A stretch of DNA of 64,000 nt from Candidatus Babeliales bacterium (GCA_963722255.1 CAVRJO010000002.1:192001-256000); one strand, 5' to 3'. Shown: positions 11,024 to 58,296, numbered from the stretch's first letter. Made by a program: numbers and translations. The notes: generated by a model from the sequence alone, not told the origin.

Positions 11024-11443
11024 ATGAAGTTACTACAAATTATACTGGTTTTTGGAATTAGTGGAGCAGTATTTAATGCATTTGGTATGGAGCAATTCTC
11101 AAAAACAGTACCCCAAAACCAGGTTCGATCAGAAAAGTTAAAATACGTTTTCAACTCACGTAAGTTCGATACCGCTCCTGGAGCACGCACAAAAATTTGT
11201 GAGCAAAAACGAGTGGATCCAGAGACCAATCAACATTTGAAATATATAGCAAAAAAAATAAGATATAGTTCAGGAGATATAACTTGGGTAACTGAACTTA
11301 GTATCCCCAATAATCCTAGGATTATGTCTACAGAACCGTTTTGTCCTAAAATTCTTTCAGAAGAAGATTCCAAAAGAATATGGTTAGAATTGAAAAAAGC
11401 ATATAAACTTCAAGAACTCAAAAGCCTCAATAGTCAAAACTAA
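11024..11443 (+). CDS. Small secreted hypothetical protein
   Basis: AGGAG SD; signal peptide ending AFG-ME; C-terminal SKRIWLELKKAY helix. Confidence 0.65.
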   Translation: MKLLQIILVFGISGAVFNAFGMEQFSKTVPQNQVRSEKLKYVFNSRKFDTAPGARTKICEQKRVDPETNQHLKYIAKKIRYSSGDITWVTELSIPNNPRIMSTEPFCPKILSEEDSKRIWLELKKAYKLQELKSLNSQN

Positions 11444-12065: not shown

Positions 12066-12380
12066 ATGAAGCGACAGTATTGTATCCATTCTTTACTAAC
12101 TATTTTATATTGCACCATTTCACTAAGCGCAATGCAAGAAAAAAGCCTTATCACAAGACAAAATATAGACGATCCAAACGACATTATTATCAAACTAGAG
12201 AAAGTAAAAGCACCAGGAAAAATTTTAACAATTATTCACACGACACATAGGACAACACAAGAACAGTCATGGTGTGGCTACCTTACTCTCTTGCTCAGCA
12301 ATCGATATATAGCCTATTATAAGTATGATCCTGATACCGCTCGTCAAAAATGGAATAAACTTAATAATCAAATAGCTTGA
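12066..12380 (+). CDS. Small secreted hypothetical protein
   Basis: AAGGAG SD; signal peptide ending LSA-MQ; C-terminal ARQKWNKLNN helix. Confidence 0.6.
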   Translation: MKRQYCIHSLLTILYCTISLSAMQEKSLITRQNIDDPNDIIIKLEKVKAPGKILTIIHTTHRTTQEQSWCGYLTLLLSNRYIAYYKYDPDTARQKWNKLNNQIA

Positions 12381-13216
12381 TCCTGCTTTTTTTAAAACCA
12401 TTATTCTCGATTATCTGGTGTTAAAAGATTAAATTGTTTAAGCCTTTTATATACCGCAGATCTATGGACACCCAAAAATTCTGCGACTTTTGATTGCGCT
12501 TTAAACTTTTTCATAAGCATTTCTAAAGTCTTAAAATCTTTCAAAGCATTCTTGCCCATTTGCGCTGCCTTTGCGCATTCAGCATCACTGATTGTATACG
12601 ATGTATCAAAATGAATAAACGTTGCAGACAAATTTTTTTGTTCCAATTTATGTTTCAGCATCGATTCTATGCGATTCTTTAATTGTTTCAAACTTAACGC
12701 TCTCTCAGAGAGTAGCTTTAATTTCTCTGAATCAGTAAATTCAAGTAATTCCCTAACCTGTGACGTTGCCAGAGCTTGATCAGTAAAACTTTGTAGCAAT
12801 GCTGAATACTCATTATCTGAAATATCAGATAATGAAGGCATAACTAATTGAGTTTGATTGAGTTCTTCAAAAAGAGCTTTAGAAAACTTTTTTTCCTGCA
12901 CCAAGGAGCTTAAGTTATGCCGTGTTGAACATATAATTCGCACTGAACTAGCAATTTTTTGTTCACTTTTATACACACGATAATAACCATAGCGTATATA
13001 TTCAGCAAGCATATCTTGTAACTCTAAACTCAATAAATGAATGTTTTTTATAAAAAGCGTTCCGGTCGTATGTAATGATTCAAGGAGCGGCTTTTCTTGC
13101 TTTGTGGTAACATCCGCTTCATACATTTTATTAATACCAAATAACTGTTTTGCAAGAACAATCATAGGAGTTGCAGCATCAATTTTTAAAACTTTCAAGG
13201 TATCACGCATGCTTAT

Positions 13217-14391
13217 CTTAACACCTGACAATTTTAAAAGTAAGCCATAAAGGGGGAATTTCCAGCAATGACAGTGCGGCTTTCAGAAGAAAGCGAATAC
13301 CTTTTTTGAAAAAGGAAGTTAAACTGCGCGCAGTTTTTTTTTAGAACGTTTTGCACGCTCAAGATCTGGCTGCATGCCGGTGGAAACAGCCCAATAATAA
13401 GCAACACTTAAAACAAGAATAAGACGTTCTATTCGTTCTGCATGGCGTAACTGAGTAGTAGTGATATCAAAGCCTCTTGATTTAAAGTCTGAGAACATAG
13501 GCTCAATAGACCATCGCATGCCATAATCAAGAACTTTATATTCGGTAGGAACACAATCCATAGCAATGATCCAAGGTTCATCTTTGCCTTCATCTTGTAG
13601 TGCACCAATGTTAGTTGTAACGCCAGAATTATTCAACTGAACATTGCACAACGATGTTTGTTTTAATCTGATAAGCTCGCCAGAACTCAATTCCCCACCA
13701 TGATGAAAAAGAATAAGATTACCTTTCAAGCGAATGCGGTATCGCCATTTGAAACTTTGACATAATTGGATAAGCGCAGGATTCCCATAGAATCTATCCG
13801 CCATTAAAATAATTTTTGCATAGCTTGGTATGTTAGCAAACACCGCCTCAAGCAGTTGTTTTTGAATGGTAAAGCCAATTTCTCCTTGCGTTTTAATTAC
13901 TCGCCATGCAACAGGAATAGCACGTTCTCCAATTCGCAATGAAACCATAAGACATTCAAATTCTTTATTGATTTGACTTTGATCCATTGATAAAACAATG
14001 ATCTGGCCATTTGCATGTATAAGTTCTATTAATTCAGGGATAAAGCCTTCTAGTAACGTATCACAATCAATTTTATCATTGGCAAGCCAACGATTAATAT
14101 AGCGATAACGCTCCTCATCACTTTTGACTTTTCTTGGCAGCACTGTTGCTAATTCTGATGTGTTAACATTGCGACATGTTATTACTGATGCTGCTAAATC
14201 TGCCAAACCTATCCTTTGTGGCTTGCTTAAACGTATATCTCTCTCTGCTAAATCTTCTTCGATAACTTTTGCCAAGTGTATTATTGATCCACCCATCATT
14301 CTCACCTTATTTACTCCTTTGTTTTTCACAAAGTATACACTTTTTGCAAAACAGAGTCTTTGATGAGTGTTAAATTTTGTCAGGTGTTAAG
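13217..14391 (-). mobile_element. IS4-family insertion sequence
   Basis: Terminal IR CTTAACACCTGACAA at both ends; 9-bp target duplication CATGCTTAT (13208-13216, 14392-14400). Confidence 0.93.
13319..14329 (-). CDS. IS4-family DDE transposase
   Basis: LSMDQS, RAIPVAW, LMADRFY, YGMRWSIEPMFSDFKSRGF (YREK motif); C-terminus probably continues in another frame after an A9 run. Confidence 0.9.
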   Translation of the reverse strand: MKNKGVNKVRMMGGSIIHLAKVIEEDLAERDIRLSKPQRIGLADLAASVITCRNVNTSELATVLPRKVKSDEERYRYINRWLANDKIDCDTLLEGFIPELIELIHANGQIIVLSMDQSQINKEFECLMVSLRIGERAIPVAWRVIKTQGEIGFTIQKQLLEAVFANIPSYAKIILMADRFYGNPALIQLCQSFKWRYRIRLKGNLILFHHGGELSSGELIRLKQTSLCNVQLNNSGVTTNIGALQDEGKDEPWIIAMDCVPTEYKVLDYGMRWSIEPMFSDFKSRGFDITTTQLRHAERIERLILVLSVAYYWAVSTGMQPDLERAKRSKKKLRAV

Positions 14392-16819
14392 CATGCTTAT
14401 AGAATGTAAAATATCTACCAAATCCGCTTCATCTTCGTCAGGAGCATCAATTACCAATGCCTTTTTACTCAAGGCACACTGCAATAAATTGATTTTAAAT
14501 TGAATCAAAACTGCTCCGACACTTGGAACAAGCTTATTAATTAAGGTGCCCGCACTTGTTGTTTCTAAATATAAAAGATAATCAATCTCCGTTGGTTTAC
14601 CCAAAGAATCTTGTATTCGTTTTATAGAGTCCATTATTTCAGGATAATAAATCATAAGAAGGACATTATTTTTTTCAAGATATGGAACAGCGCGAATAAC
14701 TATTTTTTCACCACGTTCATCATAGTTATACTTTGTTTTTGCTATCTTATAGTGAAGTACATCTTTGGCTATCTGCTGAAACTCTTTAGTCAAACGATGT
14801 CCTTGCTGCATATTAAGATCAACTTCTTGTAGTATATCTTTAACATCTTGATTTAGGTATACAAACTTCCGATATGATGTATATGAAATAATGCCTATAG
14901 CACGATGCCTCTGTAATCTACTAAATGTTTCAAGCGCTTCTCTACACTGATTTATTTCTTGATGCTTTAAAAAGAGTTCCTCTTGTAATTTCTTCTCTCG
15001 TTCAACAATAATTGAAAGTCTATGATTCTGAAAAATATTAATAACGTTTTCAAGACTAGCTACATATAAAATCATTTCATCGCATTCAATATCGTTAAAC
15101 AGCAGTTCTCCTCGTGCATTGCGTTCGATTATAATGAATGCAATAAGATTATTCTCTTTAAAAATAGGAATAAAAACATCAGCGTTAAGCGCATCTAAAA
15201 ACTCTATTACTGCAGTATTGGATGTTGTTGCATGATAGGTGTTATTAAAGGTAATTTCATCATAAATAATAATGCGTTGGCCTCGAATGAAACTATGCAA
15301 ATCATTATTGTTACTCAGCATTGATTCAACAACAAGCTCTCTTTTTGTTACGGGCCGACTATTTTTTTCATCTCCTGCAGCCCTAATACCGCTCGATTGC
15401 CTAAAGTATAAGCTCACTTGGCTCGATTCAATTGCGAATATATCCTTAAAAGCCATCTGTATAAGTGGCTCAAGTTGTTCAATATGTGTGACGCATTACT
15501 TAAATTTGCTACAGCTTGTATAAATTTTTTGAAAAATGGATATTTATGCGAATCATCGAACATGTTTATTTACATTCAAAAACCGTAACCACATAATTTT
15601 AAAAACACAATAATAGTGGCGAAGGTAAATAGGACCGATAAAATGCTGAAGCAATACATAATGAGTATCCGAAAACACTAAGTGCATAAATCCAAGGAAT
15701 AATTCCATAAAAACAAATGGACACACAACAAATTTCAATAAAGTCATAAGCTGTTGTTTTAATATCTTCGGAAAATCAACTTTATTTATTTTTTTCAAAA
15801 CAAAAAAAACAGTTAAGAGTAGAACACAAACTATAAAACTCGCGGATTTCAAACAAAATTTCAAACCAAGGCCGCTCATTACTCATACTATAAAAAATTG
15901 CCCCACCAATGAAATAACCAATATAACTACCATTAAAAAATAAAAGTAGTTTTTGATACCAAGGTAATGAATAATTCTTTTCAGCCAAACTTTCGATAAA
16001 AATTCCCAATGACTGATATTGCATAAAACACAATGCCCATGCAATGCGAATAATAAAATTATTAATGCAAATACTAAGAGAAGGAAAAAAAAGAATTCTT
16101 ACATAGCTTTGCACCCAGGTAAAATCAGTAAAAAAACTACCTATTAATGCTAACCCTAAAAAAAATAATTTTTGAAAATTATCAGAATTTTTTGTTCCTC
16201 TATATACTAACAAAGCAAAAAGATATGTTTTTGCAATAAAAGCAGTAAAAAATATTATTAAAATTAAATACTTACTAAAATCAACTATCATTGACTAATT
16301 CCTAGAATAAACGTATCTTATATTTCATAAAGAACTTATAAATGTAATAACTGAAAGGTTTAATTATGATTAGTAAAAAAAATCTCACTAATCCAATTTA
16401 TCTCAATACACTACTCGAATAATTTTACTATTAAACATTCTATTTAATAATCCACCTATACACTGATGTTAGGTTGATAATAAGTTTACCATTTCTACAA
16501 AATTCAACCACCGTAATGGTCCAATATTATAAAACATGGTTTTTAAAAAAAATTGAAAAGAAGCTAAGCACTTTGTTAATGTTTAGCTTCTTTTCAATTT
16601 TTACCAATACCAATCTCATTACGGCATTATTTAATCAGGATATGTATAGCGCAAAAAAGACCCTAAGAATATTGATACTATAAACGAGATTGTTGCCTCA
16701 GTAGATAAACTCCAATGGAAATCTCCAAAATAACGTCTAAAATCAAACAAAATAATGACCCAGGCGGAAAGTAAGAACAACCTGATTAATTTGTTGCTTT
16801 ACGCAATACCAATACGTCA

Positions 16820-17263
16820 TTATATTCTTTCGATCCGTTTATTATATCTGTTCATAATTCGGGCCATAAATATTAAATTAACAATCCAATGCACATATAA
16901 AAGAATATAATTTATACCCGACATACGATAATAATCAGCGTACCATACATAAAACCAGATATTACCTATTATCAACACCATCAATGTTCTAAATATTTTT
17001 TTGAAAAGCACAGGATCGGGCGAATCATCTAACCATACTAAGTTATATTGTGGTGCATATAAATCGGGAAATAAAAACATAGTGCAATAAAAAAAAACAC
17101 CGCTAGCGTATATAATCGTACATACAATAATACTTAATGGCATTCCCAATCTTACATAAAGAGGGAAATTATAATGGTACCATGCTTGAACAGTAAAGAA
17201 ATAAAGAAGCGGAAATATTTCATGCTTAAATTCTGACCATCGAGCTTCATAAAAATTAAACAT
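16820..17263 (-). CDS. Small multi-TM hypothetical protein (paralog of 17291-17728)
   Basis: Aromatic-rich 4-helix pattern; shared RW..FK.E.F, P..VRLG.PLS, NL.WLDD.P, WY.D.YRM motifs. Confidence 0.75.
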   Translation of the reverse strand: MFNFYEARWSEFKHEIFPLLYFFTVQAWYHYNFPLYVRLGMPLSIIVCTIIYASGVFFYCTMFLFPDLYAPQYNLVWLDDSPDPVLFKKIFRTLMVLIIGNIWFYVWYADYYRMSGINYILLYVHWIVNLIFMARIMNRYNKRIERI

Positions 17264-17290
17264 CGTGTTTGTACCTTTCTTTAATAATGG

Positions 17291-17728
17291 CTATTTTATC
17301 CTATTATTATAACTGTCTAAAGCATTAGTCATCAGCATAAAAGCAATAACACAGTGAACATAAGAAATAGCATAAAATATATCTGGCATACGGTAAAAAT
17401 CTATATACCAGAAATAAAATAATCCTAGATGAAATACTAATATCATAATTATTTTAAATATTTCTTTTAAAAGCAACGAATTTGGTGCATCATCGAGCCA
17501 TTCTAAATTAATTCGTGGTACATATTTTTCAGGAAACACAAATATCAAAAAACAGAGAAAAATACCTACAATGCTTAAACTTGTACTGACAATAGTGCTT
17601 AAAGGAGCTCCTAACCTTACAAAAATCGGACAATTAAAACTCCACCAAATCTGAAGAAAGGAAAGAAATAGAATCGAAAATAGCTCTTGTTTAAATTGGT
17701 CCCAACGACCTTCAAATATATTCATCAT
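17291..17728 (-). CDS. Small multi-TM hypothetical protein (paralog of 16820-17263)
   Basis: Aligns end to end with the neighbouring ORF by eye. Confidence 0.75.
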   Translation of the reverse strand: MMNIFEGRWDQFKQELFSILFLSFLQIWWSFNCPIFVRLGAPLSTIVSTSLSIVGIFLCFLIFVFPEKYVPRINLEWLDDAPNSLLLKEIFKIIMILVFHLGLFYFWYIDFYRMPDIFYAISYVHCVIAFMLMTNALDSYNNRIK

Positions 17729-17927
17729 GAGCCTTTTTTATATCCTATTCTTTATATCGCAAGTATCCTACCTCCAACAATTTATTAGGCTATTTCTTTA
17801 CTGACAGTAAAGAGGGTACCCATTAATTAAGACATATTTTTAATAATATATACCAAATTAGAAATGAAATAGAAATATAAGAAAATGTTCCTTCTAAATC
17901 ATAATAACTATATATTTCTCAAGTTAA

Positions 17928-18477
17928 TTAAACTGGTCCAGTTATAGTCCCACCAATAACAGCTGTACCAATAGCCACTACATTACTTGCGGATTCTATT
18001 GGGCCGGCAAGAGACATCATTAGTGCCAAAATAGCTGAATATACAAACGATCCCATTGGAAGTGTAACTACGAATATTGTTCCATATGCAACAGTATAAA
18101 CGGCAACTTTCCTACCCAAAAGCCAATAGTTGCTCCCAAAACACCACCGCCAAAGCCGCGGTTTTAGCTGTCAAAGAAAACTCACCATCGCTCATTTGCT
18201 TAACCGATAAATATCCAACTTTTTGAAACTTCTTCAATGTCTTTTTATCGGCCTTACGCAACAATGGATCAACAAAGTAGTTTTTTACATCATACTGCTC
18301 ATCATTCTGCATAACATGAAAGCCACCTTGATCATGAAACACTTCAATGTTACCTAAACTTTGGGAAGCCATCAAGGATGATTGTTTAATTTTAATACAT
18401 GAATCCTGTTCCATTGCACCAACAAAAGAAACCGTTGAAGAAATCAATAATAAGCTTGCCATAATAAATTTTTGCAT
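17928..18477 (-). CDS. Secreted RGxGGG-motif precursor with hydrophobic C-terminal peptide (two apparent 1-nt deletions)
   Basis: Adding one A in each of two A-runs (~18162, ~18109) gives ...FSLTAKNRGFGGGVLGATIGFWVGKVAVYTVAYG...GGTITGPV, colinear with 18602-19174. Confidence 0.7.
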
Positions 18478-18532
18478 AATAATCCTAATTTATAAAAAAA
18501 ATTTTAAAAACAAATAACGTAAACTCTTTTAT

Positions 18533-18565
18533 AAAAAATATTTCTACATCGCCCCTCTCCTTTTT
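18533..18565 (-). promoter_or_regulatory. 33-bp leader element, copy 1
   Basis: AAAAAGGAGAGGGGCGATGTAGAAATATTTTTT, identical to 19235-19267, ~55-60 nt upstream of the start codon. Confidence 0.6.
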
Positions 18566-18601
18566 TACCCTAATAACTGAAATTTATTTAATAACCCATT
18601 G

Positions 18602-19174
18602 TTAACAAGACGGGATAATCGCACCGATAATTCCCATACCTATTGAAGCCACTTCAACGATAACAAGTGTTGCTGCAGCCGCAACTCCCGGCGTATTACT
18701 AATAGCAGTCGCAACAACTTCTGACCCGGTAGCTGCCTGAGTTGCAATCATTACCGCACAACGACCGCCTTCTTCCCCAGTTGCTTGATTTATAGTTGTT
18801 CCAATAAACTTTGTAGCACCATAAAGAATCCCTGCCAAAACCGGGCCGCCGCCCATTCCTCGCACTTTAGATCTAAGGACAAACTCATCATTATCCAGGC
18901 GCTTGATTTCTACATACCCAGCCTTTTGAAATTTTTTGAGTGTTTTTTTGGATGCATTTCTTAATAAAGAATCAACAAAATCGTCTTTTACTTCATAAGG
19001 CGTGCCATTGCGCATAACACAAAATCCATTTTTATTTCTTAAAAGCTTAACATTGCCCAATTGCTCTGAAGCCCTAACTGAAGTCTGTTTAAATTCAAAT
19101 GTTTTTTCCATTGCCACTGCATGAGAAATAATCGAAGATACTAATATTACACTTGCTATAACTAATTTTTGCAT
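18602..19174 (-). CDS. Secreted RGxGGG-motif precursor with hydrophobic C-terminal peptide
   Basis: Signal peptide ending AVA-ME; basic domain (LGNV, FVD.LLR.A.KKTLKKFQK.GY); KVRGMGGG; Gly/Ala/Thr-rich hydrophobic C-terminus. Confidence 0.8.
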   Translation of the reverse strand: MQKLVIASVILVSSIISHAVAMEKTFEFKQTSVRASEQLGNVKLLRNKNGFCVMRNGTPYEVKDDFVDSLLRNASKKTLKKFQKAGYVEIKRLDNDEFVLRSKVRGMGGGPVLAGILYGATKFIGTTINQATGEEGGRCAVMIATQAATGSEVVATAISNTPGVAAAATLVIVEVASIGMGIIGAIIPSC

Positions 19175-19234
19175 TAAAAAATCCTGAATATAAAAAATTT
19201 AAAAACTCAATAATAATCAAACTCCCCTTTTTTA

Positions 19235-19267
19235 AAAAAATATTTCTACATCGCCCCTCTCCTTTTT
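19235..19267 (-). promoter_or_regulatory. 33-bp leader element, copy 2
   Basis: Identical to 18533-18565. Confidence 0.6.
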
Positions 19268-19940
19268 GCCCTTAATACCAACAATTTTTCATTTTTACCA
19301 TGTACATTCATTTCAAAGAAACCTCCAATTTCCCCTTAAACCATTTTTAGCAGTCTTCGACCAGTACCATCACAGATCAGAACCCATTGTGCATGAAAAT
19401 ATGGCTCTTATTGAGAAGTTTCCCAAATTGATTTTTACGTCAACATTAAATTACGTGTGAAATACATGGTTTTTTTGATTTTGAATGAAGACATTTTTAA
19501 AAAATTTTTTTTGTCGCCAAAACTGTGACCGATGCAAAAATTTTAAAGCAACATGTTCTTGACATCGATTTTGTAAAAAGTGTTTTATTAATGGGCTAAA
19601 AGTAATAAGGCAACAAAAATTGTTGTTTGAGCCTACCATTAAAAAAGCAACAAGAAGCGCAATGAGGAGCGTATATGATAATTAATTTAAAAAGGAAACA
19701 AAGACAACTACTATTTTCGATCTAAGTACAAAACATTTTCAAAATAGTTCTTAAGAATAGAACGATGAGGGCTAAAAATTTCTTCCGGCAAGTTCGCTCT
19801 GTTAAAAAATCTTGCAGCCAACTTTAATATTTTTGGTATTCACAAGCGAACTTTCAGCATAAGATCAAAATTTTTTCTAAAATTTTAAGTTAAGAAGGAT
19901 ATAGACAACCTTAATTGCGCGCTTCAAGCACACCTAAAGA

Positions 19941-20354
19941 TTATTGAATAGGAGTAAGAATTTTTATCATTAAAGCATAATAGCTTGAAATATTTGGATA
20001 AATATCTCTTACCTGAGCAGCATTGTAATTATGCGTTGTCTTATTTCTATCTTCCAACATTGCCAAAAGCACAAACCCTTCCGATTCCGTACATAATTCT
20101 TTTTCTACGCACATACGAAAAACTGAACGAGGACTATTTACATCTTCAATATTAAATTTTTTTTCAAAATATAATTTAAGAAATTTCCAAAAACTTTCAT
20201 AGCAATATTCAAACCGTTGTATGGTAGAATCTTGTGCTGCTAAAATAAGTCTGTTATTACCAAGATCAACGGCCTCTTCTTCTGCAATAAATGAATCTGC
20301 TAAAGTTGCTAAAGCATTCGTTAATAAACTTCGGCTTAATGTTAATTTTTCCAT
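19941..20354 (-). CDS. HEPN (HI0074/nucleotidyltransferase substrate-binding family) RNase toxin
   Basis: DSTIQRFEYCYE..WK, SPRSVFR, RNKTTHNY (RxxxxH); overlaps the MNT gene. Confidence 0.9.
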   Translation of the reverse strand: MEKLTLSRSLLTNALATLADSFIAEEEAVDLGNNRLILAAQDSTIQRFEYCYESFWKFLKLYFEKKFNIEDVNSPRSVFRMCVEKELCTESEGFVLLAMLEDRNKTTHNYNAAQVRDIYPNISSYYALMIKILTPIQ

Positions 20355-20653
20355 TCAATTCCTTCTTCTTGAATTGTTTTTCTAAATTCTTCCGGAATTG
20401 CATGCATATCAACTAAATCAATAAAAACTGGAATAACTAAATGCTCTAACGTAACCCGTGCTCTTTCCATCTCTCCAAATGCAATTTGCTTGCCATAATC
20501 AACTGCAATATCAATATCGGCACCGGGTCTATTGGTTCCTCGTGCTCGTGAGCCGAAAAGATAAATTTTTGCACCGGGAAAATGATAGTCCATAGCTCGC
20601 ATTATCATAGTCTTGTAATCCAGATTAATATTTTCTGCCATCGCATTTCTCAA
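20342..20653 (-). CDS. Minimal nucleotidyltransferase (MNT) antitoxin
   Basis: IYLFGSRARG...ADIDIAV...IDLVD. Confidence 0.9.
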   Translation of the reverse strand: MRNAMAENINLDYKTMIMRAMDYHFPGAKIYLFGSRARGTNRPGADIDIAVDYGKQIAFGEMERARVTLEHLVIPVFIDLVDMHAIPEEFRKTIQEEGIEWKN

Positions 20654-20789: not shown

Positions 20790-21992
20790 TTATTTTAAAG
20801 TCAATTTCATACAGGTTGTACCAGGATAGGAAAAGTTTAAAATACTTTTATAATTCCATCCATGATCAATCATTTTTCGAGCACCCCATTGGCAAATTCC
20901 CAAATGATGGCCATATCCCTTACCTTCAATAACTATTTTTTTAAGCTTTTTTTTGAATAGAATAACAAAAGCTTTTTATTTTAGTGGTTAAAGAATAAAA
21001 CTGTTTTCCTGTTAATTTTGTTATTCCTTGAGCCCAGGATATGGTAACCTCTTCAACAGCACCGGCCTTGTCTTTTGCAGCATTTATTGACGTAATACCA
21101 TGGATCATAAAGCCTTTTTTCTGTAATAATTTTTCAAACTCGATGCAGTCAAGCTCACATTTCCATTCATAAATTTTACATGGCTTGCAAAAATCACATA
21201 CTTTAGTCCGAGCTAAATAAGGCGATTTTTTAAAATCTACGCCGGTCAAATGTGCAGGAATAATGCCCCCACAACAACTATCAAACATCGCATGAATCGG
21301 TTTCTTATTATAGGTAACAATAAGACCTTAGTTTGCTCTACTGCTTTTTCTAGAACTTCACTTTCGTGAAATCCATTATAGGTCTGATGAATATTAGTTT
21401 TTTTTATATGATACGGATTTTTATTACCACTTTCCAATACCTTTGCAATTACGTAAGTTCGCGAAGCGATGGCAAAAACTTTATTAACCTCAAGAGGCCA
21501 ACCGGGCCAACTTTCTGATCGTAAAACAGAATAAACATAATCTTCGAGTTCAAGCTGATTGATAAGCATACAGGAATCATTTTGAATAAGACAAATAAAA
21601 GAACCTTGATATACATTATTAGAAAAGCCCAGATGCCCTTCAATAGGCTCAATTCTTATGCTCTTTTCTTCCAAGCGTTGGCCATTAATATACCAATTTC
21701 CCTGCTTCATACAAAGCATGGTAGTAGTATGCTTAGAATATCGTTTTTTTCTATGATTGGTAGCATCATAAATCATTACACCTTTTTGCGCGTATATAGA
21801 CCACTGAGTTGAACCTTTTTTTTCATCAAGTAGTACACGTACCTTAAACTGCTTTGGGTTTTCTACAAAAGGTCCTGGATTTTCTTGCTCTTTTATAAGC
21901 GTCGACATTTTAACAGATCGCGCATCACACAAAGCGCCGAATAGACAGTTAAAAATGCATAAACAGTAGACAAGATTATAAAGAAATGTCAT
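20790..21992 (-). CDS. SpoIID/LytB-domain lytic transglycosylase (two apparent frameshifts)
   Basis: INQLELEDYVYSVL.SE, AIASRTY, HQTYNG, MFDSCCGG, and GKGYGHHLGICQWGA read in a third frame to stop at 20790. Confidence 0.85.
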
Positions 21993-56406: not shown

Positions 56407-58296
56407 ATCGGGTAGGAGCGAGTGATTAACTCGCGTCCTCCCACACCACCGTACGTACCGTTCGGTATACGGCGGTTCATGTCGATACTTTCGCGAGCAT
56501 CTCATAATATCTTTCAACAAGACTTACAAGCCCTTGCTCTCGCCAATAAGCGAGGCCGAGGGCTTTGTTTATTTGTGGAGTATTTGCCAGCCGCCAGTAT
56601 TTCTTGTCTGAGAATGCTATGCGTCCTGCCCATTTTCCTTCGATTCCTAGGTCTTTTAACTTTGCAAGCTTGGTTTTCCCTAACTTCCATTGTTTCAATA
56701 AACACATTCTCAATCTTCTGCGTATCCATTCGTCAAGTTCCTGGAGCACACTCTTTGTTTCGATAATACCGAAATATCCAATCCATCCAATGAGATACTC
56801 ATTGAGCTTCTTCAGTCGTTCTTTCATAGATATACCCCAATTGCGCTTCGTTAACTCGCGAATCTTCTCCTTAAACTTTATTCTGGTTTTGGGAGCGATT
56901 CGCAGCTTTACTTGCCAGCCAAAGGTGAATGAGAATCCTAGGAACTTTCTTCTCGATGGATAGTCTATTGCACTCTTTTGTACATTTATATTGAGCTTCA
57001 ATCGTTCTTGTAGAAACTTCATTATACTTGCATACACTCTTTGTCCCGCTCGCTTGCTTGCTACGTAGATGTTGCAGTCATCGGCGTATCGAACAAAAGA
57101 GTGTCCTCTTTGTGTAAGTTCTTTATCAAGATCATTCAGTATGATATTTGATAGCAGGGGACTTATTGGGCCACCTTGCGGTGTCCCGTCCTCTGATCTC
57201 ACATGACATCCATTGAGCATTACTCCCGATTGCAAGTATTTGCGGATAATTGCGTGTATGCGTTTATCTTCGACATGTTGTGCTATTTTCGACATCAGTA
57301 TGTCGTGATTTACACGGTCAAAGAATTTCTCGAGATCGATATCCACCACAATTTTCTTTCCGTGTTGGATATAGGTTTGGGCTTTATGCACAGCTTGCCG
57401 TGCACTTTTGCCTGGTCTAAATCCATAACTGAATTCTGAAAATGTAGCTTCAAATATTGGTGTCAAGACTTGTTGGATTGCCTGTTGGATAAAGCGATCA
57501 AGTACCGTTGGAATTCCTAATTCACGCACTCCACCGTCTTGTTTCGGAATTTCGACTCGACGTACGGGAGCTGGTTTATAGGTTCCGTCAAGAAGCTCTT
57601 GTTTGATGCGATTCCAATGCTCATTCAGATATGGAAGCAGTTCATTGACCTGCATATTATCCACACCCGCCGAGCCTTTGTTTCTTTCCACTCGTTTGAG
57701 TGCCTTCTTGAGATTATCGTACTCTACCACTTTCTCCATCAGTTGATTATTATGATTTGCCAAGATATGTTTGTTGATTTGTGTCATAAGTTTGCTCAGT
57801 ACCTCATCAGGACCTGGTAGAATTCACTACCGCCTCTCAGTGATGGTTCGATTTTTTTTTTTCGATTTTCTACTTTCATTGCATTCTCGATGTACGTATC
57901 AATCATATCTTTATCGCTCATGTTCAGGCCTTCCCGATTTTTTTTTTCGGTACTATGCCATCTGCTGACTTCTGTCCCTCAACCTCTATTTTCACAGAGG
58001 GTTGCCAACTTAGTCGGCGTGGAAACAGATCTCCCCGGGTAATTGCGCGCCCTTTCACCTCATCTACCTGCTCTATTTACTCTCGATAGTTTTGGCAACC
58101 ATGGCTTTTGTCTTACTTGGCAGACTCATCCGCTATCGCTAGCCTCGCATAGAGTTCGTATACCTCAGGCCAAGGTTTTGCTGCCGGCTTCCTTCAGATT
58201 TCACCTCGCGATGAACACCCTTGCCTTAGGCTAATGACTTCGTTGCCTTCGTCATTCCGGACTTTCACCGGTAGGTCGCGCCCATGCCGGGCGCAC
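56407..58296 (-). mobile_element. Group II intron, bacterial class C (IIC), apparently complete
   Basis: 5' GTGCGCCCGGCATGGGCG; short domain V GAACCGCCGTATACCGAACGGTACGTACGGTGGTGT; domain VI ending CCTACCCGAT; inserted just after the U-tract of an intrinsic terminator. Confidence 0.95.
56477..57787 (-). CDS. ltrA: Group II intron reverse transcriptase/maturase (no endonuclease domain)
   Basis: NKGSAGVD, RELGIPTVLDR, SYGFRPG, DLEKFFD, GTPQGGPISPLL, RYADD, FLGF, domain X GWIGYF. Confidence 0.96.
   Translation of the reverse strand: MTQINKHILANHNNQLMEKVVEYDNLKKALKRVERNKGSAGVDNMQVNELLPYLNEHWNRIKQELLDGTYKPAPVRRVEIPKQDGGVRELGIPTVLDRFIQQAIQQVLTPIFEATFSEFSYGFRPGKSARQAVHKAQTYIQHGKKIVVDIDLEKFFDRVNHDILMSKIAQHVEDKRIHAIIRKYLQSGVMLNGCHVRSEDGTPQGGPISPLLSNIILNDLDKELTQRGHSFVRYADDCNIYVASKRAGQRVYASIMKFLQERLKLNINVQKSAIDYPSRRKFLGFSFTFGWQVKLRIAPKTRIKFKEKIRELTKRNWGISMKERLKKLNEYLIGWIGYFGIIETKSVLQELDEWIRRRLRMCLLKQWKLGKTKLAKLKDLGIEGKWAGRIAFSDKKYWRLANTPQINKALGLAYWREQGLVSLVERYYEMLAKVST

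Follow-up and report, generated by a model that had tools for sequence, protein, structure and literature searches.

A candidate polymorphic toxin-immunity type module with an R-x-x-G-G-G joint in Candidatus Babeliales

The DNA analysed here, a 64,000-nt stretch from Candidatus Babeliales bacterium (GCA_963722255.1 CAVRJO010000002.1:192001-256000; hereafter the window, with positions counted from its first letter), belongs to a 1.62-Mb, 93% complete genome, labelled G000, and carries a locus encoding two putative secreted precursors, two small membrane proteins and a regulator-like protein. The precursors belong to a family in which a constant N-terminal domain (N-domain) of approximately 85 amino acids (aa) is joined, at an R-x-x-G-G-G motif, to hydrophobic tails that are exchanged at this motif and covary with a small membrane protein encoded downstream. 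We propose, with about even confidence, that the core of this locus may be a polymorphic toxin-immunity type module specific to the phylum, consisting of Sec-exported membrane toxins and membrane immunity proteins, because a constant front with an exchangeable tail, a fixed junction, a covarying small membrane protein and orphan partners are the signature of polymorphic systems.

The precursor family and its R-x-x-G-G-G joint

The genes of the locus are real and all lie on the minus strand. Open reading frames (ORFs) and transmembrane (TM) segments were called by simple scripts, and hydrophobic segments by a Kyte-Doolittle scan. The core comprises four genes:

18602..19174, minus strand: precursor 1, an intact 190-aa ORF with signal peptide, N-domain, RGMGGG and an 80-aa tail ending ..IVEVASIGMGIIGAIIPSC
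17928..18477, minus strand: precursor 2, in three frames (N-domain, 18166-18477; RGFGGG piece, 18107-18160; type-B tail, 17931-18110, ending ..GGTITGPV)
17291..17728, minus strand: membrane protein 1, 145 aa with four predicted TM segments, likely cognate partner of the precursor 2 tail
16820..17263, minus strand: membrane protein 2, 147 aa, paralogous to membrane protein 1, candidate for a further partner or immunity protein, either for precursor 1 or as a spare

Precursor 1 begins with a hydrophobic signal-like helix ending AVA/ME, followed by the ~85-aa domain, which matched the N-domain profile at E = 1.8e-35, by RGMGGG at residues 105-110 (GGG at 108-110), and by a tail composed of A (19%), G (14%), I (14%), T (11%), V (10%) and other residues. 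The intact frame shows every part that a first-pass annotation of this DNA had assigned to it, namely a Sec-type signal, an ~85-aa domain, RGMGGG and a hydrophobic tail. Its AlphaFold2 (AF2) model, with a mean predicted local distance difference test score (pLDDT) of 86.8, consists of a helix (residues 2-21), a mixed strand-and-helix domain (33-104) and three tail helices (110-149, 152-159 and 164-186); the N-domain model reached a pLDDT of 91. For precursor 2, which had previously been taken as one gene frame, three intact homologues aligned by tblastn across three frames, at 18477-18166, 18160-18107 (18 codons, holding RGFGGG) and 18110-17931, and the tail piece was 46.7% identical to a tail in genome G014. 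The basic character initially ascribed to the N-domains suits precursor 1 (net charge +7) and not precursor 2 (net charge +1). A third, divergent family member of 178 aa is encoded in the same genome (L003 1279-1815, minus strand, contig C1 of G000), with a type-B-like tail ending ..ATGLV, a degenerate junction (..HGNGLRG..) and no obvious membrane partner downstream.

In six tandem or sister-species pairs, the N-domains were 97, 93, 98, 99, 96 and 91% identical, versus 28, 30, 24, 32, 40 and 31%, respectively, for the tails. The constant N-domain and variable tail perceived in the window alone thus hold across the family, and the homology breaks at the GGG. Between G014 and G048, two genomes of one genus, the flanks are 88% DNA-identical, homology ends within the RG[K/L]GGG codons, and the tail and the downstream membrane gene have been replaced together (946 bp versus 646 bp). 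Two tandem arrays provided three paralogue pairs whose DNA homology is lost between about one codon before and 12 codons after the motif, and one relative, P0002, joins a precursor-2-like N-domain (77%) to a precursor-1-like tail (55%). The joint itself is well conserved: among 129 metagenomic members with complete tails, R occupies position -5 in 118, and G the first, second and third glycine positions in 129, 122 and 128, respectively. A constant N-terminal part with alternative C-terminal modules at a conserved junction, as in polymorphic toxins, is accordingly what was found.

A word-indexed search of 5.8 billion proteins returned P0002 as the only relative of precursor 1, and a six-frame search with precursor 1 matched 12 of 61 related genomes. 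Two N-domain profiles (A1 and A4) matched 82 and 84, respectively, of 261 genomes, which represent both the order and the phylum in the genome set used, and the N-domain profile retrieved 1119 proteins with E values of 1e-3 or lower, 667 of which reached 1e-10 or lower, from 1.84 billion representatives of metagenomic clusters formed at 50% identity. Loci were taken from the best profile matches, 54 from 51 other genomes and the window itself, giving 55 loci in 52 genomes. At these loci the architecture recurs in 76 ORFs, so that the combination of N-domain, motif and tail is more than chance. The N-domain is sometimes repeated two or three times within one protein.

Searches for relatives of known identity were negative. 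Pfam gave no family for 132 scanned members (150 were listed, and 16 short and 2 earlier-scanned ones were excluded), and the precursor and membrane proteins of the window matched nothing in Pfam, NCBIfam or PADLOC. A search of PDB sequences with profiles A4 (N-domain), A5 (type-B tail) and A6 (145-aa membrane protein family) returned nothing below E 0.2, and Foldseek against the PDB, with the full precursor 1 model and with that of the N-domain, yielded no match with an E value of 0.001 or below. VIA-align of the full model detected only generic helices, on residues 106-190, with a best Z of 5.7. A resemblance of the N-domain to SAS-6/XRCC4-type head domains (best VIA-align Z of 4.9, root-mean-square deviation of 3.5 over 76 residues) lay below a meaningful level and was discarded, and the best ESM Atlas score (0.79) pointed to unnamed clusters. 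No published description came up among the papers listed for the Dependentiae toxin/immunity literature, and the motif strings RGLGGG, RGNGGG, RGMGGG and RLLGGG led only to unrelated papers. The initial impression that this is not a described system is consistent with these results; the carrier domain and junction motif are in no database searched, and the family, with 1119 clusters and presence in 84 of 261 genomes, is uncatalogued.

Tail classes and their membrane partners

The tails, hydrophobic and 57-233 aa long overall, fall into two main classes and a minority group with charged ends. Type-B tails, including that of precursor 2, span 71-78 aa and end in ..TGPV or similar, and type-A tails, of which precursor 1 carries a short variant, span 57-201 aa and end in ..IPFLP, ..LPTP or ..IPWL. 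A strongly hydrophobic segment is present in 116 of the 129 metagenomic tails, and A, G, V and T together make up 62% of residues. A terminal helix bearing a Glu and a Pro-rich end is common to all classes; the Glu lies approximately 19 positions before the C-terminus (motif present in 46 of 74 tails versus 242 of 1480 shuffles).

A hydrophobic ORF of up to 240 aa starts between -60 and +150 nt from the precursor stop codon in 49 of 74 cases, often with a 4-nt overlap, and the encoded partners are highly diverse. The kind of partner nevertheless follows the tail class: members of the 145-aa family, to which membrane proteins 1 and 2 belong, or mini-peptides designated 'WYWYE' and 'MTQNEH', come after 17 of 21 type-B (TGPV) tails versus 1 of 53 other tails. 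Because the relatives are non-independent, the associated Fisher value of 4e-12 is too strong, but the association is seen in many genera. After type-A tails, the next gene, at -34 to about +60 nt, encodes one of a diverse set of two-TM proteins of 57-92 aa or a protein of 110-233 aa. The mini-peptides (WYWYE, ~43 aa, 7 members; MTQNEH, ~46 aa, 16 members) are single-TM peptides encoded in tandem directly 3' of type-B precursors, for instance at L032 5896-6167, L045 4884-5155, L053 4529-4806 and L062 4578-4852, and are likely missed by gene callers.

Membrane proteins 1 and 2, correctly recognised at the outset as two paralogues of about 145 aa, are 43% identical and show four and two Kyte-Doolittle hydrophobic segments, respectively. 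The protein encoded directly after a type-B precursor in G014 is 46% identical to membrane protein 1 and 34.5% to membrane protein 2; because the tail nearest to that of precursor 2 is the one in G014, whose partner is closer to membrane protein 1, the latter is the likely cognate partner of precursor 2. The 2:2 pairing first envisaged has become doubtful, since both 145-aa proteins belong to the family that goes with TGPV tails, the class of precursor 2, and the class of precursor 1 normally has another partner. Complex prediction for the type-B tail (A5) with the 145-aa family (A6), run without controls, gave a median score of 0.30 against a mark of 0.32, which counts neither for nor against a complex.

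The 145-aa family profile matched 25 of the 261 genomes (31 matches), 13 matches lying within 2 kb of an N-domain and 18 not; eight of these 25 genomes had no N-domain match. By analogy, such orphan genes suggest those of known toxin-immunity loci. Arrays also hold tail fragments and runs of small TM ORFs. The partner gene is thus found directly downstream, is swapped with the module and occurs as orphans, and an immunity role would suit it. In genome G229 (L059 7182-8048), a type-B precursor continues into a copy of the 145-aa family within one frame of 288 aa, which may represent a frameshifted junction or a fusion.

Possible function, related systems and alternatives

In the mechanism that we propose, the precursors would be exported by Sec, the N-domain acting as a constant carrier or targeting part and R-x-x-G-G-G as a hinge and recombination joint, and possibly as a cleavage site. 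The helical tail, rich in Ala, Gly, Val and Thr and bearing the conserved Glu, would insert into a membrane, of rival bacteria in the same host cell or of the host, and damage it as a pore or ionophore, and the small integral membrane protein from the downstream gene would protect the inner membrane of the producer. In the window, precursor 2, with its TGPV tail, would pair with membrane protein 1, and membrane protein 2 would be a second immunity gene, for precursor 1 or spare. These four genes would form one transcription unit ending at a hairpin at 16545-16603, with the regulator outside the mechanism.

PMC11630599, on contact-dependent growth inhibition (CDI), describes CdiA-CT ionophore toxins with polymorphic membrane CdiI immunity proteins, and the parallels with the present family comprise a constant delivery part followed by a variable C-terminal, helical and putatively membrane-spanning toxin, an integral-membrane candidate immunity gene directly downstream, and co-diversification of the two. 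CdiA is a giant two-partner-secretion protein with five-helix ionophore domains, whereas here an 85-aa carrier, presumably Sec-exported, meets tails of 57-233 aa at an R-x-x-G-G-G joint. Neither Pfam nor PDB sequences revealed any similarity of tails or carrier to known proteins, those of CDI included. The joint of CdiA is of the VENN type.

In pore-forming colicins, protein toxins of Gram-negative bacteria, a C-terminal helical domain inserts into the inner membrane and is neutralised by an immunity protein of approximately 110-180 aa with three to four TM segments, which the 145-aa family resembles in size and topology. Colicins, however, lack a signal peptide, depend on a lysis protein for release and, at 400-600 aa, contain separate translocation and receptor domains. 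Pfam detected no colicin pore domain in the window proteins or the 132 family members, and fold searches with the tail returned the generic helices mentioned above (Z <=5.7).

Class II bacteriocins and microcins carry a double-glycine leader of 15-25 aa that is cut by a C39 peptidase-ABC exporter. The precursors share with class II bacteriocins the Gly/Ala-rich hydrophobic peptides, the adjoining small membrane proteins (candidate immunity proteins here) and a Gly-Gly at the boundary of the putative active part, but a Sec-type signal and a folded 85-aa domain stand before their motif, with GGG at 108-110, in place of a short leader. The C39 peptidase domain (PF03412) was found neither in the locus, in agreement with the first-pass annotation, nor elsewhere in the 93%-complete genome, in a search whose control matched 7 of 14 named genomes. 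The double-glycine leader analogy drawn earlier is therefore only formal. The LXG toxins TelE and EsxX of type VII secretion systems (T7SS) reportedly combine a constant N-terminal trafficking domain with a membrane-depolarising, glycine-zipper C-terminus and are accompanied by membrane immunity proteins; those are Gram-positive T7SS substrates with an LXG domain, whereas neither an LXG domain nor a T7SS signal was seen here.

Several points weigh against a toxin-immunity function. Searches of Pfam, NCBIfam, PADLOC and PDB sequences assigned none of the tails or partners to a toxin or immunity family already described. The carrier measures only ~85 aa, and there is no recognisable delivery machinery by which a Sec-exported protein would exit a diderm cell, two secretin genes in the genome having no demonstrated link to the module. 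Precursor 1 is without the kind of small partner that usually accompanies its tail class. The shared C-terminal helix makes the tail classes diverged relatives, not unrelated toxins, and fits a structural membrane anchor too, and the 145-aa family, with its many stand-alone copies, might just as well have a function of its own. To our knowledge, obligate intracellular parasites are not a usual setting for bacteriocins. Toxicity, protection, processing and secretion are all predictions from sequence.

If the toxin-immunity reading is right, intracellular parasites throughout a candidate phylum possess a rich stock of interchangeable membrane toxins and the antidotes that go with them, genome-reduced and host-dependent bacteria still invest in competition or in self/non-self discrimination, and a compact Sec-dependent design joins the delivery routes of polymorphic toxins. 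The very small membrane immunity proteins (43-150 aa) and short helical pore candidates would, moreover, be easy to test. A bolder version, which we consider unlikely, is a phylum-wide, Sec-launched 'mini-colicin', in which R-x-x-G-G-G would be both the recombination joint and the release site freeing a Glu-bearing ionophore that kills rivals or permeabilises a host organelle, with the 43-46-aa peptides conferring immunity. Antagonism or kin discrimination would thereby be recorded for the first time in such obligate parasites, and with a new carrier fold.

A serious rival, although unlikely in our estimate, is a structural role: the precursors would be non-toxic envelope proteins whose N-domain is a periplasmic or surface module anchored by the C-terminal helices, the partner a membrane subunit or insertion helper, and the diversity host-driven, antigenic or a result of relaxed constraint. 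A shared anchor would look like the terminal helix, with its Glu and Pro-rich end, common to all tail classes; the small, well-folded N-domain, sometimes present two- or threefold, the lack of any known toxin domain in the 132 scanned members and the frequent stand-alone occurrence of the 145-aa family also agree with this role. A plain anchor, however, leaves unexplained the exchange of tail and partner as a unit at a conserved joint, behind N-domains that are 91-99% identical, as well as the arrays with orphan partner genes and tail fragments and the genomes that have the partner but no N-domain protein.

A distinctly unlikely alternative of another kind is that the locus is decaying in this genome, precursor 2 and the regulator being true pseudogenes and the cluster no longer a working unit. 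Precursor 2 does contain two frame changes, the regulator one frame change and an insertion sequence (IS), and the regulator orthologue of a same-genus genome (G001) is likewise split in two ORFs. Nevertheless, the 36-54 kb part of the window (minus strand) is almost devoid of long ORFs and holds fragments of EF-Tu, EF-G, L2, L4 and adenylate kinase, in contrast to the whole EF-Tu/EF-G/ribosomal operon, intact in G001 at 77% DNA identity; G001 proteins aligned to the window revealed approximately 40 frame changes over 25.6 kb of aligned segments. Since essential genes cannot be pseudogenes at such a scale, the assembly holds many indel errors, and because these genes are broken in the same way, the three frame changes at the locus (two in precursor 2, one in the regulator) are probably assembly artefacts, which is the simplest explanation. 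Furthermore, precursor 2, read across its three frames, keeps domain, motif and conserved tail without other defects. Among the defects of the locus, the IS insertion alone is secure, and pseudogene calls in this genome need read support, given its indel rate. No RNA run was listed as containing any of this DNA; one public DNA run contained 6% of the sampled words and yielded two 151-nt contigs identical to 18570-18709 and 18812-18962, in the precursor 1 region only. A SpoIID-domain gene at 20941-21992 (minus strand), present as two overlapping ORFs of 115 and 248 aa, probably reflects another assembly frameshift.

It is quite improbable that the precursors are host-directed effectors whose tails insert into the vacuole or organelle membranes of a eukaryotic host, with the partner shielding the bacterium's own membrane. 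Such effectors would have the same architecture and self-protection gene as the toxins proposed above, the two secretins could serve their export, and PMC6561590 describes the phylum as parasites of protists. Orphan partners in precursor-less genomes, however, are more readily understood as defence against the toxins of neighbours than as self-protection, kin discrimination typically involves cassette swapping at the strain level, and no eukaryote-like motif was found.

The regulator-like gene and the surroundings of the core

The remaining features of the locus are as follows:

19235..19265, minus strand: 31-nt G+C-rich element, copy 1, 5' of precursor 1, exact twin of copy 2
18533..18563, minus strand: 31-nt element, copy 2, 5' of precursor 2
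16631..16780, minus strand: 49-aa hydrophobic ORF from the ORF map, a putative gene between membrane protein 2 and the terminator
16545..16603, minus strand: intrinsic-terminator-like hairpin with U8, identified by its 23-nt arms and folding energy
12401..16291, minus strand: regulator-like gene in pieces (TM part, 15782-16291 and 15553-15879; middle, 14380-15456; AAA remnant and HTH_8, 12401-13231)
13217..14391, no strand assigned: IS element within the AAA domain of the regulator (transposase ORF 13319-14329, minus strand; target duplication 13208-13216 and 14392-14400)

By tblastn, the regulator aligns with an intact 907-aa homologue in three blocks (homologue residues 25-153, 168-651 and 649-907, at 16243-15860, 15825-14392 and 13216-12422), which therefore imply one insertion and one frame change, the latter in a T8/A7 homopolymer stretch that lies between 15825 and 15860. 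The inserted element, of 1175 bp, has 22-nt inverted ends and a 9-bp target duplication, CATGCTTAT, and its transposase matched DDE_Tnp_1 (E = 5.4e-8); the genome contains eight DNA matches to it, six of them full-length at 99-100% identity. The duplication encodes the same three residues on both sides of the IS, and the homologue alignment continues over the joint (residue 651/649). The IS thus entered the AAA domain cleanly and recently.

The regulator contains N-terminal TM segments, a sigma-54-type AAA remnant and HTH_8 (E = 5.7e-5). Pfam Sigma54_activat matched at E = 1.3e-13 over profile positions 53-167 only, the C-terminal two thirds, and over positions 41/53-167 across the window pieces and homologues. 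Pfam detected no GAF domain, whether in the window pieces (E cut-off of 1) or in two intact homologues (E cut-off of 0.1). Of the TM-GAF-AAA-HTH regulator in the first-pass annotation, the TM segments, an AAA remnant and HTH_8 were thus recovered, the GAF domain was not detected by Pfam, and the IS had been overlooked. Similarly, its five co-oriented genes do share the minus strand, but precursor 2 lies in three frames and the regulator in pieces.

The Sigma54_activat remnant and Fis-type HTH_8 recall sigma-54 enhancer-binding proteins of the NtrC family, and NCBIfam gave distant matches to NtrX, DhaR, PrpR and PspF, far below cut-offs. In contrast to that family, the Walker A motif, the Walker B acids and GAFTGA are absent from all five intact homologues and from the window pieces, and the protein has six to seven predicted N-terminal TM segments and a middle part of ~350 aa. 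Neither a functional AAA+ core with GAFTGA nor RpoN was found, the RpoN DNA-binding domain (PF04552) giving no match in the 93%-complete genome in a search whose control matched four named genomes. Homologues of ~900 aa with the same order of TM segments, middle part, sigma-54-activator-like AAA domain and Fis-type HTH lie at L017 8766-11489, L013 12927-15626, L023 345-3023, L024 5612-8374 and L030 1422-4151. Of 61 related genomes, 38 contain this family, and the genome of the window has four copies. It poses a separate puzzle, that of a membrane-tethered, sigma-54-activator-derived protein with a dead ATPase in a genome without detected sigma-54.

A regulator homologue lies within ~5 kb of the module in 6 of 55 loci (G000, G001, G004, G055, G056 and G081), three of the six in one family and with a different position and orientation each time, and near none of 14 stand-alone membrane-gene loci. 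In the window, the strong terminator hairpin at 16545-16603 separates it from the core genes. It is accordingly an occasional neighbour, here inactivated by the IS, and does not belong to the conserved module. Of the gene neighbourhood first proposed, a membrane partner often accompanies the N-domain family across genomes, while the claim that the regulator belongs to the system finds no support, given these counts, its missing AAA motifs and the undetected RpoN domain. In the same-genus genome G001, the locus-linked orthologue (L013 9881-12546) is split into ORFs of 356 and 511 aa at another place than in the window and lies 5' of the precursors, versus 3' in the window.

Peptide signalling, in which the tail or a GGG-cut fragment would be a pheromone sensed by the membrane proteins and the TM-AAA-HTH regulator, is very improbable: the proximity of the regulator in six loci, against about 1 of 54 by chance (a rough estimate, inferred and not computed), and a 31-nt element common to both precursor promoters would suit it, but 49 of 55 loci have no regulator, its AAA domain is degenerate, a terminator intervenes, the 31-nt element is absent from the loci of relatives, and the pheromone/receptor idea raised earlier has little support from tails of 57-233 aa that are very hydrophobic and unlike diffusible signals.

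The 31-nt element, which sits in a 59-nt repeat that is 85% identical, has only two matches in the 1.62-Mb genome at <=3 mismatches (reversed control, 0) and was not found in the loci of relatives at <=7 mismatches; since it is not conserved there, no regulatory claim is made for it. The hairpin, ~220 nt past the membrane protein 2 stop codon, has 23-nt arms that are 96% complementary, followed by U8, and a folding energy of -30.7 kcal/mol (z = -8.0; 0 of 200 shuffles as stable), and it probably ends the transcription unit of the precursor and membrane genes. A consensus promoter and terminator scan of 16200-19400 gave sites no commoner than in shuffles, and a search of 20 related genomes returned no homologue of the 49-aa ORF.

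Just upstream of the locus, at 19941-20653 (minus strand), an overlapping nucleotidyltransferase (NTase; Polbeta/NTP_transf_2) and NTase_sub_bind pair resembles toxin-antitoxin systems of the MNT/HEPN type; a similar NTase ORF lies near the module in genome G055 (L023 10483-10785). Two small ORFs at 11024-11443 and 12066-12380 (both plus strand) have signal-like N-termini followed by G/A-M-E/Q, the same post-signal context as in the precursors (..AVAME.., ..VGAME..), which may be a common cleavage context in this organism. Finally, group II intron RNA domains (Rfam RF02001, 127 bits; RF01998, 61 bits) were detected at 57927-58215 (minus strand), beside a 436-aa ORF at 56477-57787.

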